Below are positions 1-52,308 of a DNA stretch of 64,000 nt, piece after piece. Numbering within the stretch: the first letter of the stretch is position 1; every line of letters starts with the position of its first letter. Below the pieces are notes generated by a model. The model was not told the origin of the DNA. It was given only the letters and a program-made list of their open reading frames with translations, and searched no databases. A program made the translations under genes and the position numbers. Location: the IMG/VR virus record IMGVR_UViG_3300045996_000852, positions 64,001-128,000 of that record; one strand, given 5' to 3'. This stretch comes from a virus (Duplodnaviria; Heunggongvirae; Uroviricota; Caudoviricetes).

Positions 1-906
1 ATTCAAAGAAGTATCAGCAACTATGTATTGCATCGGAACTATCTCATAATCACTATATTGATCTTCAATATGGGAGAAATAGTATTTGGCTGCTAACCAA
101 TAAAAAGCTTGTTGAATGTAGTAATAATATTTAAGATAACCATAAGTAAATCCTTCGTTATCCCAAGTACACTTCAAATCATATAGATAAATCTTCTTCT
201 TTTTATGGTCAATTTTGAACAGGTCAAGTTCTGATTTACATTTCGTTTGAGTACAGTCTACATTATCATAAAGCCATTCTATAGGAAAGCTTGTGTGTAA
301 AGTATCCTTGCTACCAAGGAAAATATGAGAAGTATTCTCATCCCTTAGAACTGATTGACCAACAAACTTTCCTTTGTCAAGCATTACAGGGGTAACCATA
401 ATCTTACCAATATTGGCAATTCTGGACTTATAATAATCCTGACCATTCTTTTCGAAATCATCCCACACTTTATCAATATCCTTTCCTTTGTATTTATCCT
501 GAGCCTTGACACGATTGAAAGCCTCGTCAAACATATCAGCCATAGCCATAGTACAAATACCTTCCTCATTTGTGTTCTCTTCTGTTACATCGAACAAATG
601 GTCACAAAGGATAAATACCTGTCCTGTACCTAACTCATAGTCTAATTGAGCAAACTTTTCATCAATCCTATTGTCAAATTCTCGTTCATCACCATGACAA
701 TCCAACACAAAAAAGTGGGCTATATCACCCACTGTTGTAGACATGGAAGGTTTTGACTTCCTAGTCTTACCTAGTTTGTATTGATCGAAGAATAATGAAG
801 GATTTTCATCCCATACTTTAAGCATGGAATAGTTTAAAGAGGTAAGTTTTCTGTACTCTACCTGTGGTTTAACCAATTGGGTTTGTTTTACTTTTCCTGT
901 AATCAT
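1..906 (-). CDS. PD-(D/E)XK exonuclease, RecE/ExoVIII (DUF3799)-like; 3' end truncated by window edge
   Basis: Not in the ORF track (no stop inside the window). Manual translation from ATG at 906 gives MITGKVKQTQ...KSELDLFKIDHKKKKIYLYDLKCTWDNEGFTYGYLKYYYYIQQAFYWLAA, i.e. the D...DLK...QxAxY pattern. Confidence 0.75.
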   Translation of the reverse strand, partial: MITGKVKQTQLVKPQVEYRKLTSLNYSMLKVWDENPSLFFDQYKLGKTRKSKPSMSTTVGDIAHFFVLDCHGDEREFDNRIDEKFAQLDYELGTGQVFILCDHLFDVTEENTNEEGICTMAMADMFDEAFNRVKAQDKYKGKDIDKVWDDFEKNGQDYYKSRIANIGKIMVTPVMLDKGKFVGQSVLRDENTSHIFLGSKDTLHTSFPIEWLYDNVDCTQTKCKSELDLFKIDHKKKKIYLYDLKCTWDNEGFTYGYLKYYYYIQQAFYWLAAKYYFSHIEDQYSDYEIVPMQYIVADTSLN

Positions 907-23777: not shown

Positions 23778-23809
23778 CAAATTTAGTCTACTTCTTATAT
23801 CCTTCCAAA
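23778..23809 (-). promoter_or_regulatory. Bacteroidota housekeeping-sigma promoter
   Basis: TTTG (-33), 20-nt spacer, TAAATTTG (-7) upstream of the SSB start. Confidence 0.7.
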
Positions 23810-31678: not shown

Positions 31679-32494
31679 ATATACGTATCTCCTACATTTT
31701 TACCCTCTGTAGATAATTCTTCTATATTATCTAAATCAGTAACAAGCTGAGATTTGCCATCTTTGAAAATGTAATAGTAAATCACTGGAAACCAATTCCT
31801 TGCTCTATTACAATCTTCTACATGTTTGAGTAAAGCAGATTCGATTGAGTCTATATGTCTTGAATCAAGTTTGTATAGCTTAATAACTTTCTGCAAGTTC
31901 TTCCCTAGGTCTGTTGAGTTACATAGGAAAGAGTAAGATTTACCCTGAATTTTATCACGGACTTGGATTTTACCAGTAAGGTCCATTATTTTGTTCTGAA
32001 TCTTACCGTGTAATGCTAATACCCAATCATTATAGTTGAAGTTTCCTTCAACCACTGTTGTTGTGGTAGTTGTACTACTCAGGTAAACTTCGTCCTGTAC
32101 CAAATCTATTGCCTGTTCTGTGAGAATTCCTTCTAAGAGGTATCCTTTCATTGTCAAATAGTTGAAAAATCCCTTAATCCTTTTCAGGTTAGGTAATTTA
32201 TCTCCTCTATATATACAAGAAAGGACATGATAATGGTCTAAAGACAAGCCATTTGTAAGAAGCTTCTCATACTTTTCCGTACTTATCATAGTTAATTTAT
32301 TTTCTTATATCCAAAGGTACAAAGTTTCCGTTAATTTCAAAACCTTCAAGAACAATTCTTGTAAGTCTTGTAACTGACTTTCTCAAAGCAATTGCTGTTT
32401 CCTGTCCAGAACCAGACATGATAAATCTTTCTCTTTTCTGAGTCCTGATTTCTGTACAAACAAATACACTGTTAATAGTGTTGATTGGTGTCAT
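31675..32494 (-). CDS. two hypothetical proteins (31675-32289, 32297-32494)
   Basis: ORFs between the polymerase and the helicase. Confidence 0.55.
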
Positions 32495-36147: not shown

Positions 36148-37028
36148 TTAAAATAAATTTAAGAATGCAAGAATTAAAGTTTTTCTACGAACACTATTAT
36201 CAATAGGTTCACTATTTCCGAAAGCAAATAAGTCTTTAAATCCAATTATATAATAATCCGATACATCTATTTTGGATATACTCTTATCTTCTGAATTTAG
36301 ATATAGGCTTCTGAACAAATCAAAGTCTTCCCTTGTTACAGTTTCACCTACTCTACATCCATTCGAAAAGACAGGAATACCTTTCCTATGGTCACTAGTA
36401 AGATAGATATTCCCGTCTTTTGAGTACCCTATAAATGCTCTGAATTCATCCTTACTTTCCCATCTTTCCATGAGATTAAATTCGTAAGGGTTAGTCTTTT
36501 GTTTGGTTGTAAATAGCATGGGGTAACTTATTTGGTGATTGAATTACTATACTTGCTATAGTTTTACAAATATAGTGTGTTTTCAATAGTTACCAAATTT
36601 TTCTTCTCAGATATAAGTTTGTGAGCTTCCAATATCCTCTCTGAAGTTATTGGTATTAATCTTCCACTTTCATCATACCTAGTGAAGGAACACTTGTAAC
36701 CCAAATAGTTACGAATTTCTCTTACGATTTCCTCGATTGTTTTACCTGTCTTTTCTACCATCTTTTTTAGTTTAAAGTTTAAATCTGATATGGTATCCCT
36801 AAATGATAAGGGTTTACCATAAATTGTTATAATTCTCTTTCTAACTGATTGGGACAATATAGCATATTCCACCTGCACTTTTGCTCTGATAATATCTATC
36901 AACTCATCATCCTCGGTGGCAACATTATGGTGATAAGTCTTTCCAAATACCATTACTTCTGATTTGCCGGGAGCAGCAGAACATATTGGGTTCAGCTTCC
37001 TCAGGTCTTTGAGATTGTTAGTTTTCAT
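36148..37028 (-). CDS. two hypothetical proteins (36148-36519, 36564-37028)
   Basis: ORFs. Confidence 0.55.
36567..36597 (-). promoter_or_regulatory. Bacteroidota promoter
   Basis: TTTG, 19-nt spacer, TATATTTG. Confidence 0.65.
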
Positions 37029-49082: not shown

Positions 49083-49968
49083 TTAAAAATTTCTGTTTCT
49101 GTTGATAGCTTTTTTGATTCTACTTTCGGTAAAAGCTATAATACCTACAAATAGTGCAACTGCAAGACCTATAGGAATCCACGGAGTTCCAAAGGTGTTG
49201 TTGTTAAATACTCTTATCAATACTTGAATAATTACAAGTAAAGATAATCCATAAACGAGTGCTCTGGTAATCATACTCTTGTTTTGAGGGTTTGTAATTC
49301 TTTTTCAATTCGACTTCTGTCAAAATCAGTAAGTGGTTCTGTACTTACATTTTCTTTAAAAGCTACATTAATAATAGCACCATCACCTGATTTTGTAGGT
49401 TTAGTACCACTCTGTAACTGAGCTTCTAATCTTTTGATAACTGTCTCTCTCCGAGACCTTTGTGCAGGTGCTCCACCTCTTCTGCTTGTGTGAATTCTAG
49501 GCTTCATTGCTTGTTTTTTATTATTAATAATTATTCAGAATCATACTTTCTTTCACTTCCCTCATCATCACCTATAGGATTTTCAAAACCATACTTGACA
49601 GCAGTGGCTTTAAACAGTGGTAATCCATACATAGGATATTCATCAAAATCTTCTAATCCTTCCTCAAGAACCCAATTCCACATCTGAACTACACTGTACA
49701 TTAATCCAGATGAAATACCTCTCTGATTGAGGGCTTTTTCGAATCCAAAAGCAACATCTTTTTCTAACTGCTTGAGGATATTTTCTTTAGTAAAAGGGAC
49801 AGGCTGATGTTTCCCTTTGTACTCCTCTTTCAATTCCATTCCCATACTGGTTATTTGTTCTTCAGTAAGGAATTGTAATAATCGTGAAATATCTCTACCA
49901 TCAAGAGTCTGACTCTTATACTGAGAGATAATTGTTTCAATTGATTTCATGTTGTTTTGATTTAGCAA
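49083..49968 (-). CDS. three small proteins (49083-49274 membrane, 49271-49507, 49531-49968)
   Basis: ORFs downstream of the promoter at 49966-49995. Confidence 0.55.
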
Positions 49969-49995
49969 ATATAGGAAAATAGTTTAAATACCAAA
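49966..49995 (-). promoter_or_regulatory. Bacteroidota promoter
   Basis: TTTG, 18-nt spacer, TATATTTG. Confidence 0.55.
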
Positions 49996-50380: not shown

Positions 50381-50395
50381 AAATAAGTTTTAAAA

Positions 50396-50497
50396 AGAAG
50401 ACAGAGCAGTATGTTTATTTGATTCTGCTATGTATTACTTTAGCACTGCCTTTAGTCATACTTCTTTCGAAGGTTCTCAGGCACTACTCTGTCTTCT
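50396..50497 (-). ncRNA. candidate structured RNA (three-way junction)
   Basis: 15-bp closing stem with a G.U pair on the minus strand, GAAA-tetraloop arm, second hairpin, trailing U-run. Confidence 0.5.
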
Positions 50498-50582
50498 CAA
50501 TGCCTTACCCACGGATGAACAGGTAAAGAACTACAGGTCTATCTCCCTGCTTGTTAGGCATCCGTTCATATTTTTCCGGGTG

Positions 50583-51039
50583 TGGAGGTGATCGGGGTCG
50601 AACCGATGTCCAAACATAATAATCAGTCGAGAGTTACGTGTGTGACTAGCTTTATCATCCCTGTCTTGGATTATCTCAGTTGTGAACTGGAAACTGTGCC
50701 TGTTTGCATAGTTATACTGTACACTCCACAGGCTGACTTCTAACAGTTACCTTTCTAAACCTCAGGTGGGTTCGGGAACTAGACTAATTCTAATTCTTCT
50801 TCTGCCACTACCTCAGCAGGGAACAGAGAAGTTAAGAAAGAATCAAGGTTTCCATCTTCTCCTACAGTCACGTTAGACTTAGCAGGAGAGTTTGCTTCAA
50901 CATTAACACTGTTAACATTAGAAGCGGCAACATTTGTGTTTGCGTTTATTTTTTGAATATTCAGATTATAGACCTAATTATCCAACGGTCTACACGCCCT
51001 CTTCCCATTACCCATGCTGTCAAAACCAAGTACACCCCC
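50583..51039 (-). ncRNA. ssrA: transfer-messenger RNA, about 457 nt, 3' CCA not encoded
   Basis: 5' GGGGGTGTACTTGGTTTTGAC; 3' GGACATCGGTTCGACCCCGATCACCTCCA; G3.U70 alanine identity pair; resume context AAAAAATAAAC-GCA. Confidence 0.93.
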
Positions 51040-51053
51040 GGGTAAATAAAGTA

Positions 51054-51085
51054 CAAATATACTAAAATATCTGTACTTTACCAAA
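51054..51085 (-). promoter_or_regulatory. Bacteroidota promoter driving the tmRNA
   Basis: TTTG, 20-nt spacer, TATATTTG, ending 14 nt upstream of the mature 5' end. Confidence 0.75.
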
Positions 51086-51090
51086 TTTAT

Positions 51091-51456
51091 TTACAAATTT
51101 GACCTATAACTGTCAGGATGGATAAAATCAATAATATCCTTGGCCTCTTTTAATCCCAAGCCTGTGATTTCCTTCATTACCTTTACTGCATTCAATTTAG
51201 AATTTCCTACCATATATTCTTTGATATGATTTATGTCCCATCTGCTAATCCTCTTAAAATCAACAGGTTGCATAATTCTTCTCAATTCTTGAGTAAATGG
51301 GTCGGAATAATCTACATCATGCTTTTTAACTTCAGTGGTATTAGCACCAAGCTCTTCCTTGAGAATCTTTATAAGTGCTGTATTGTGACCAATTTCTCTA
51401 TCAGTCTTTGGTTCTTCTATGAACATATTTAATATGCTCTTGACTTTCAATCTCAT
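51091..51456 (-). CDS. protein with a ribosomal protein bL12 (L7/L12) C-terminal-like domain
   Basis: KLNAVKVMKEITGLGLKEAKDIID. Confidence 0.75.
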   Translation of the reverse strand: MRLKVKSILNMFIEEPKTDREIGHNTALIKILKEELGANTTEVKKHDVDYSDPFTQELRRIMQPVDFKRISRWDINHIKEYMVGNSKLNAVKVMKEITGLGLKEAKDIIDFIHPDSYRSNL

Positions 51457-51845: not shown

Positions 51846-51879
51846 TTGTGTTGTAGTTTAAGTTTTACAAATATAAGAA

Positions 51880-52308
51880 CTATTTTAAGAATTCCCTCAA
51901 AGGGTCCAAAATTTTGTTTCTGTTACTATGATACCTTTCGTAATTCATACGGGATGGATGCATAAGGTATAGGATTGGCTGAGTCCTACTTCTCCAAGAA
52001 GGGGTATCGTTTTCCAAGAAATGTTTAGCTACATTACCAAGTACTATTATCTTTTTGGAATTCAATATCTTTTCAGATAATACTTGATGATAATGTAATA
52101 ACATATCTGCTGTAGAAGGTACTTTATGTCCACCTCCCTTAGCTTTACCGGGAAAATTAGCTGATACAGCTTCGAATTCAAACATTTCCTGAGCTTGTTC
52201 TTTGGATATACCACATTCTTCCAGCCATTCATATAACATTGTAGTATCATAAGGAACCTTTTGTTCCTGTGCAGGTGGAGCTTGTCCTATGATAAGTATT
52301 TTACTCAT
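51880..52308 (-). CDS. uracil-DNA glycosylase superfamily protein, not family 1
   Basis: ILIIGQAPP, KIIVLG, LMHPS. Confidence 0.7.
   Translation of the reverse strand: MSKILIIGQAPPAQEQKVPYDTTMLYEWLEECGISKEQAQEMFEFEAVSANFPGKAKGGGHKVPSTADMLLHYHQVLSEKILNSKKIIVLGNVAKHFLENDTPSWRSRTQPILYLMHPSRMNYERYHSNRNKILDPLREFLK

Follow-up and report, generated by a model that had tools for sequence, protein, structure and literature searches.

A phage-encoded tmRNA related to those of soil Chitinophagaceae carries a 54-codon tag reading frame

The phage genome analysed here quite probably encodes a working one-piece tmRNA of the soil Chitinophagaceae type, with a tag of 54 codons and an altered fate of the tagged products. 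The phage keeps all the parts which the host machinery must recognise and rewrites the message alone. The gene lies in a window of 64,000 nucleotides, the whole stretch of DNA analysed. This window spans bases 64001-128000 in an IMG/VR virus record of 165,392 bp that carries direct terminal repeats. The record possesses 29 tRNA genes and one tmRNA according to ARAGORN. The open reading frames around the tmRNA gene are small, closely packed and all situated on the same strand, with a GC content of ~34%. For a large protein encoded nearby (phrog_1735), the best cultured relatives were those of the Cellulophaga phages phi17:2 and phi4:1 (52-53% identity), and a protein of the uncultured 462-kb phage LR756500.1 is closer still (67%). 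The direct terminal repeats, the tRNA load and the Cellulophaga phage kin therefore make the name phage tmRNA correct, as the initial annotation had it. No GenBank phage matched the tmRNA or the surrounding 20 kb of DNA. Among the 29 tRNA genes, 27 are grouped in two arrays at the ends of the record (G000:C1:52-1473, 161608-165391), beside the terminal repeats. A tRNA-Ile(GAT) gene is present at both record ends and thus probably lies within the repeat.

ARAGORN identified a complete one-piece tmRNA gene of 458 nt at 50582-51039 on the minus strand, the sole tmRNA in the window. Its length agrees with the previous estimate of about 457 nt. The Rfam covariance model RF00023 matched positions 50580-51039 with a score of 82.9 bits (E 1e-30; gathering score 47) over model positions 1-374 and without truncation, so that the curated threshold is passed across the entire model. 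The features of the locus are as follows, with RNA positions (nt) counted from the 5' end of the tmRNA.

51054-51085, minus strand: Bacteroidota-type promoter motif TTTG-N20-TAtaTTTG, with its end 14 nt upstream of the tmRNA 5' end (pattern scan)
51012-51039, minus strand: 5' half of the tRNA-like domain (nt 1-28; ARAGORN); identity to Chitinophagaceae tmRNAs ~80%
50955-50991, minus strand: pseudoknot PK1 (nt 49-85) with stems AGACC/GGUCU and GGAUA/UAUUC (covariation with 19 host-type tmRNAs)
50944-50954, minus strand: single-stranded A-rich resume context AAAAAAUAAAC (nt 86-96; Rfam consensus AAAAAAUAAu)
50779-50943, minus strand: tag frame with GCA (50943-50941), 54 sense codons and UAG (50781-50779) (translation; codon-usage, stop-count and shuffle tests)
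50776-50796, minus strand: 8-bp helix-5-like hairpin GAAUUAGA-AUUAG-UCUAGUUC with the UAG in its 3' arm (local folds)
50620-50775, minus strand: region expected to hold PK2-PK4 (nt 265-420), within the full-length Rfam match
50582-50619, minus strand: 3' half of the tRNA-like domain (nt 421-458) with T arm, 3' strand of the acceptor and discriminator A (ARAGORN)
528-557, 23778-23809, 32312-32341, 36567-36597, 49966-49995, 51054-51085 and 51868-51901, minus strand: matches of the Bacteroidota promoter motif

The acceptor stem in the ARAGORN domain structure is composed of 7 bp, in which GGGGGUG faces the 3' strand CACCUCC and forms a G3.U pair (G3.U70, alanine identity). The 3' half of the tRNA-like domain is 87-92% identical to host tmRNAs. 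The T stem shows a compensatory change, with AUCGG/CCGAU in the phage tmRNA and ACCGG/CCGGU in host tmRNAs. The CCA is not encoded in the phage gene, and the same is observed in most of the aligned host genes. The region of PK2-PK4 has the right length, but its Rfam posterior probabilities are low and it could not be aligned to the host tmRNAs. The window contains 9 matches of the motif TTTG-N18-22-TAnnTTTG, an enrichment over the 2.7 +/- 1.7 expected, and 9 was reached in none of 100 shuffles. Seven of the nine matches fall on the coding strand, in agreement with a Bacteroidota host. The gene immediately upstream of the tmRNA promoter (51091-51456, minus strand) encodes a protein of 121 residues. 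A match to the C-terminal domain of ribosomal protein bL12 (PF00542, 35.5 bits; cut-off 25.9) spans residues 83-110 and places a translation-factor-binding module beside the tmRNA, while the N-terminal 80 residues are unrelated. The 180 nt downstream of the tmRNA (50396-50570, minus strand) carry inverted repeats nested in one another and a single weak site resembling a terminator at 50533-50550. A ~94%-identical piece of 50394-50569 alone was found in another context in soil run X3.

PK1 and the resume codon were analysed by alignment with 19 host-type tmRNAs. In this alignment 98.5% of the cells of the PK1 pairs can pair, and five of the ten pairs are changed on both sides. None of 500 shuffles matched the real pairing, and slid controls paired in 20-46% of cells. 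The loop and the second stem of PK1 are letter-for-letter the same in phage and hosts. The first stem covaries, with AGACC/GGUCU in the phage and AGAGC/GCUCU, AGUGC/GCACU or CGUGC/GCACG in the hosts, and a G-C to C-G swap in it is found only in the phage within the alignment. The A-rich stretch AAAAAAUAAAC is homologous to the host ..CAAAnnnnAAAU, which is sited right before the host resume codon. Rfam aligned AAAAAAUAAAC and the following GCAAAC to the consensus AAAAAAUAAu followed by GCaAAC. The phage resume codon GCA thus corresponds to nt 97 (window position 50943), 11 nt past PK1, while the resume codons of the hosts are at nt 97-99. The host resume codon GGC aligns to the phage GCA, and the codons GGC AAU ACU CAG UAU GCC.. 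of the hosts run beside GCA AAC ACA AAU GUU GCC.. of the phage. The first six phage tag codons (ANTNVA) parallel the host GNTQYA; the hosts then end with M, A, A and a stop, and the phage reads on.

The resume codon is accordingly placed at 50943 by homology with the host tmRNAs. The initial annotation had chosen the same GCA, and both the Rfam resume-region alignment and the same position in Chitinophagaceae tmRNAs agree with it. The check by ARAGORN and RF00023 that it had called for gave no short tag ending in ..AA, and Rfam agreed with GCA 50943. It had described the resume context as E. coli-like. In E. coli the context is AAAAAAUAGUC followed by GCA AAC, and the likeness is real. It is not specific for E. 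coli, because the Bacteroidota host type has it too, and the context is that of the likely host family itself.

The origin of the RNA was traced with the 5'-domain signature GGGGGTG-N3-6-GGTTTTGACAGC. The signature matches listed were almost only in Bacteroidota (Chitinophagaceae, Alistipes/Rikenellaceae and Sphingobacteriales), the exception being one Nealsonbacteria MAG. From the signature loci and metagenome contigs 183 tmRNAs were taken, and the nearest ones to the phage tmRNA were all of Chitinophagaceae type, from Flavisolibacter ginsengisoli, Niastella, Longitalea, Puia and soil MAGs. Chitinophagaceae were also the best among 289 retrieved tmRNAs. The phage and Chitinophagaceae tmRNAs share 72-82% identity over nt 1-88..106 and 80-92% over nt 415..424-458, and the tag of the latter is GNTQ(Y/F)AMAA. 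In a blastn search of 401 Chitinophagaceae genomes, 256 matched the phage RNA, solely at nt 1-105 (<=80% identity) and nt 415-458, and none of the 401 had a match covering the long coding part. The phage tmRNA clearly descends from the tmRNA type of soil Chitinophagaceae, with an expanded coding part. The word re-engineered, which had been applied to it from its sequence, is a fair one for an RNA that derives from a Chitinophagaceae-type tmRNA with the tag GNTQYAMAA and has gained a longer coding part. The compensatory changes of the phage copy in PK1 and the T stem show that its structure has stayed under selection. Soil Chitinophagaceae are the likely hosts on indirect grounds, namely tmRNA similarity, promoter type and the Cellulophaga phages as nearest cultured kin.

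Several candidate relatives among viruses were rejected. The viral_contigs database gave no match to the exact 3'-domain pattern and none to the PK1 pattern. Phages with the phrog_5706 gene, which in the present phage is a neighbour of the tmRNA (L055-L062), had no tmRNA beside this gene, nor elsewhere in five of the records. They share this gene alone and without synteny, so they say little on gain or loss of the tmRNA. LR756500.1 does possess a tmRNA, but the tag of this RNA is short (GNNAEMRMAA) and it does not resemble the phage tmRNA. No tmRNA was found in Cellulophaga phage phi17:2_18. One of the contigs sharing phrog_5706 (L061:1626-1752) showed a match to the Betaproteobacteria-1 sRNA (RF02932, 58.5 bits).

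The 54-codon frame behaves as coding sequence. Translation of 50943-50779 gives exactly the residues quoted in the initial annotation, followed by UAG. The tag ends with ELELV and so has no canonical Ala-Ala end, as was stated there. The frame contains no stop, while the other two frames contain 6 and 8; in these, +1 and +2, reading stays open for 24 codons and for 7 codons, the latter ending ..CCRF. With a codon model trained on 103 long ORFs of the same phage, the log-likelihood of the tag frame was +18.6, compared to 13.1 +/- 5.1 for real 54-codon gene windows and -8.1 +/- 4.7 for shuffled open frames. The excess over the shuffled open frames corresponds to a z of about +5.7, and the signal covers all 54 codons. 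The scores of the other frames were -35 and -61. A frame open for at least 54 codons arose in shuffles with P = 0.025. The GC content by codon position is 0.57/0.37/0.26 in the tag and 0.45/0.35/0.27 in phage genes. No tandem repeats were found in the coding part. The tag frame has no ATG, its single in-frame GTG is codon 25, and between the previous in-frame UAG and the resume codon ATG, GTG and TTG are all lacking in this frame. Trans-translation is therefore the only evident route to its translation. The stop codon lies in the hairpin at 50776-50796, which alone folds no better than shuffles, and helix 5 of Rfam is deleted in the RF00023 alignment of the phage tmRNA.

A variant of the frame was found in a search of sequencing runs. 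Soil run X1 was the only run with the locus at identity and is probably the source sample; no RNA run was listed as containing the locus. Rhizosphere run X2 contains a 151-nt contig which is 92% identical over 50780-50916. Among the seven differences listed of a total of 11, silent third-position changes are present at codons 20, 24, 25 and 27, and the replacements are K22T and D30G. Six codons are changed within codons 20-30, and no difference is listed for codons 31-48. The position of the stop is unchanged, with UAA as the codon, and the 14 letters past it differ yet could still close a hairpin over the stop. This contig lends thin support to conservation of the tag frame, being a single one of 151 nt with 7 of 11 differences listed, and it agrees with the other tests. 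Run X3 and short X2 pieces over 50951-50987 continue into unlike sequence. The loose ends from X2 resemble short tags of the host type (GNTSYAMA..) and were hence assigned to bacterial tmRNAs rather than to kin of the phage tmRNA.

The tag peptide is divided in two parts. Residues 1-27 are uncharged and mostly N, V, S and A. Residues 28-54 have a net charge of -8, and the top helical hydrophobic moment is at NLDSFLTSLFP. Single-sequence AlphaFold predicted one short helix at residues 33-40 with the rest unstructured, at a low pLDDT of 63.5. The first half looks like a spacer, and the acidic second half is predicted to possess one short amphipathic helix (LDSFLTSLF). Homologues of the peptide were found neither in viral_contigs, metagenome_contigs, genome_contigs and the ESM Atlas nor at near or longer lengths in a set of 5.8 billion proteins. 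An origin from a protein-coding gene is therefore unsupported.

The tag was compared with other tags for its length and its end. The commonest tag length is 10 residues (PMC11915505), and tags almost always end in a hydrophobic residue (PMC4131195). At 54 codons the phage tag exceeds the usual range of about 8-35 residues. It lacks the canonical ..(L/V/M/I)AA C-terminus, having ELELV instead, and its last residue, Val, is hydrophobic. Among 289 ARAGORN tags from the related searches, 236 end with AA, 269 with A and 3 with V. The tag had been described as departing from the usual small hydrophobic end. This is right in that Ala-Ala is lost, but the rule itself is not broken, since Val is both small and hydrophobic and the phage tag thereby keeps the general hydrophobic-end rule. 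More than 100 IMG/VR tmRNAs were fetched for comparison. Several lineages among them have tags of 24-31 codons by ARAGORN and a total open frame of 37-44 where the relatives are consistent, and their tags all end with (V/L/I/M)AA or ALA. The phage tag is the longest in this comparison and the only credible frame ending with ELV. No significant nucleotide or peptide similarity was observed between the phage tmRNA and other long-tag phage tmRNAs. Kinship of the tag with that of L094 (GNTNV..SLFAELEGELALA) or L128 (..ASLFGEVAIAA) is suggestive by eye, and was rejected as not significant (z <= 2.2). Similarly, membership in a long-tag family with the pattern ELS(T/D)xTF(E/D)..AF..AA (ELSTMTFED) was rejected, as hmmsearch gave a score of -0.8 and 2144 of 5000 peptide shuffles scored that high or higher.

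On the basis of these features the following working is proposed. The tmRNA would be transcribed from its own Bacteroidota-type promoter, and host enzymes would process its 5' end and add the CCA. The host AlaRS would charge it with alanine, given the G3.U pair, and host SmpB and EF-Tu would bring it to stalled ribosomes. Genes for SmpB, ClpP and Lon are absent from the phage. In four Chitinophagaceae genomes SmpB was present and the ClpP gene was situated within about 1.5 kb of that of ClpX. Translation would resume at GCA nt 97 as in the host RNA, and the 54 codons would be read to the UAG in the hairpin, so that the rescued chain gains Ala and 54 residues. The phage would thereby raise the capacity for ribosome rescue during infection while altering the fate of tagged products. 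In the preferred reading, which our analysis considers most likely, the tag would be a signal for disposal whose specificity is altered. A long, unstructured segment leading into a hydrophobic/aromatic helix would be read in a Lon-like manner and not by the ..LAA-COOH pocket of ClpX. This reading is preferred because the host-type YAMAA end has been replaced. Rescue alone with an undegraded tag ranks as the next most likely. The initial annotation had put forward three hypothetical functions, namely rescue without proteolysis, a different protease or adaptor, and a functional peptide, and it is the structural part of its reading that the present results bear out. E. coli still degrades ssrA variants with an AAV or ASV end, and ClpXP may accordingly still recognise the terminal Val of the phage tag. 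As the likely hosts have ClpXP, the change of tag cannot be an answer to a ClpXP-less host, unlike in Mycoplasma.

The best surviving alternative, which we hold to be unlikely, is that the tag is a payload and not a degron. Ribosomes would be freed, the products would be stable, and the acidic amphipathic end would bind a partner of the phage or the host. The payload could then occupy or divert a protease or adaptor, or collect unfinished chains. The loss of the canonical Ala-Ala end, although the likely hosts keep ClpXP and the YAMAA tag, is in favour of this, as is the predicted resemblance of the peptide to a spacer with a short binding helix. The X2 variant, with six changed codons in 20-30 and none listed in 31-48, points in the same direction. 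However, no candidate partner was found and no database searched contained a homologue of the peptide, and the likeness to other phage long-tag motifs is not significant. All the other long phage tags compared end with AA, which argues that long tags generally remain degrons. In its fullest form this alternative makes the captured host tmRNA a device which frees ribosomes and adds an acidic payload tail of 55 residues with a helix for binding, the products being no longer condemned. We give that form a similarly low probability. The tail may, for example, saturate or divert a host protease or adaptor, or mark unfinished host proteins for a phage-specific fate.

It is improbable that the tmRNA is decaying or serves as a decoy. 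In this reading a copy derived from the host would have lost its stop and would perform no useful tagging, being either inert or a sponge for host SmpB and EF-Tu. Such a sponge role has been proposed for the RNA of mycobacteriophage DS6A, which consists of the tRNA-like domain only, and phage RNAs that inhibit tmRNA have been described (PMC4131195, PMC11915505). The frame has lost the host stop, and this PK1 type occurs in no other IMG/VR contig. PK2-PK4 cannot be aligned to the host RNAs, and their low posterior probability means that part of the RNA could be decayed. Against decay stand the compensatory changes in the phage PK1 and T stem, the phage-like codon usage of the extension with zero stops against 6 and 8, the intact resume context and the promoter motif of its own. 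The X2 variant, which retains frame and stop, argues the same way.

A short tag, with resumption elsewhere (at the GCA chosen by ARAGORN or in another frame) and an incidental long frame, is the least probable reading of all, as the 2.5% of shuffles which yield so long an open frame and the ARAGORN call in its favour are outweighed by the resume codon set at nt 97 by host homology, by the negative scores of the alternative frames, by a coding signal that spans all 54 codons and by the nature of the call itself. The tag reported by ARAGORN is AEEELELV (nt 235-261), which covers the final 8 codons of the tag frame and was flagged as 'Tag not identified'. The corresponding resume site is 150 nt from PK1 and has a poor context, with ggtagtg before gca. 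Across 289 calls on other tmRNAs the maximum tag given by ARAGORN was 31 codons, and its start points were inconsistent among near-identical relatives whose frames are open further upstream. Judged from these outputs, the program looks as if it has a limit on tag length, and the short tag would be an artefact of this limit, because no call exceeded 31 codons and the starts were inconsistent.

Calls on other tmRNAs show comparable patterns. In one IMG/VR tmRNA lineage (L068, L070, L083, L096, L103, L119, L146, L160, L167, L181) the frame is conserved as open over 37-44 codons (..NGNNTNGVVALGANAQVEANMNKVFSLL..VAA), and ARAGORN starts it at nt 103, 118, 119 or 136 depending on the member. Tags given for viral tmRNAs in ARAGORN-based surveys are therefore probably truncated. 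Tags of 28-30 residues starting from nt 149-150 (AGPKAAWRRVSR..) were given for ~400-nt tmRNAs of the Alistipes/Rikenellaceae type (L209, L218, L229, L250, L278, L307, L328, L425). They are implausible, and the resume codon has probably been miscalled in this clade. Long tags are likely to be under-reported in surveys of viral tmRNAs, because ARAGORN, the standard annotator, gave a fragment here and inconsistent tags elsewhere.

Trans-translation is usually seen as one package, in which ribosome rescue is joined to destruction of the product by way of a short tag ending with ..AA. Phage tmRNAs as such are already known; the new feature is a host-derived phage tmRNA with an extreme and non-canonical tag. 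Its message is rewritten to six times the normal length with a different end, while the tRNA-like domain, PK1 and the resume context are kept. The phage probably handles unfinished proteins otherwise than its host, because the tag is 54 codons long in place of 9 and the Ala-Ala degradation signal is gone. If the fate of the tag differs from that in the host, the RNA would be a natural experiment which parts rescue from proteolysis, and it would show that phages tune the protein quality control of the host.

Among known systems, the tmRNA of Chitinophagaceae, such as that of Flavisolibacter ginsengisoli DSM 18119, is the closest. It has the same acceptor GGGGGUG, D-like GGUUUUGACAGC and T arm as the phage RNA, and both have the resume-codon spacing and the loop and second stem of PK1 in common. 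The phage tag has 54 codons and ends with ELELV, whereas that of Chitinophagaceae has 9 codons and ends with YAMAA. The phage RNA is 458 nt long compared to about 370 nt, its middle third cannot be aligned, and the stop and helix 5 of the host RNA are replaced. The Chitinophagaceae gene is chromosomal, while the phage copy lies in a virus genome. The SsrA of E. coli, with the tag (A)ANDENYALAA, shows a nearly identical resume context and shares the GCA and the second codon AAC, but differs in the length and the end of the tag. Phage tmRNAs have been described in the mycobacteriophage Bxz1 group and Bacillus phage G (PMC4131195) and in huge phages (PMC7162821), and like the present one they are complete genes in large, tRNA-rich phages. 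In Mycoplasma a tag of 27 residues accompanies a switch from ClpXP to Lon (PMC8403727). The phage tag cannot be assigned to this type of extended Lon tag, as neither homology nor a ClpXP-less host was found. Mycoplasma tags end with ..YAFA or similar, whereas the phage tag ends with ELELV, has no sequence similarity to them, is twice as long and is strongly acidic; Mycoplasmas are without ClpXP, whereas the likely phage hosts have ClpX and ClpP. Like the phage tag, the Mycoplasma tag extends far beyond 10 residues and contains an internal hydrophobic/aromatic patch, and it forms a precedent for great tag length paired with a change of protease.
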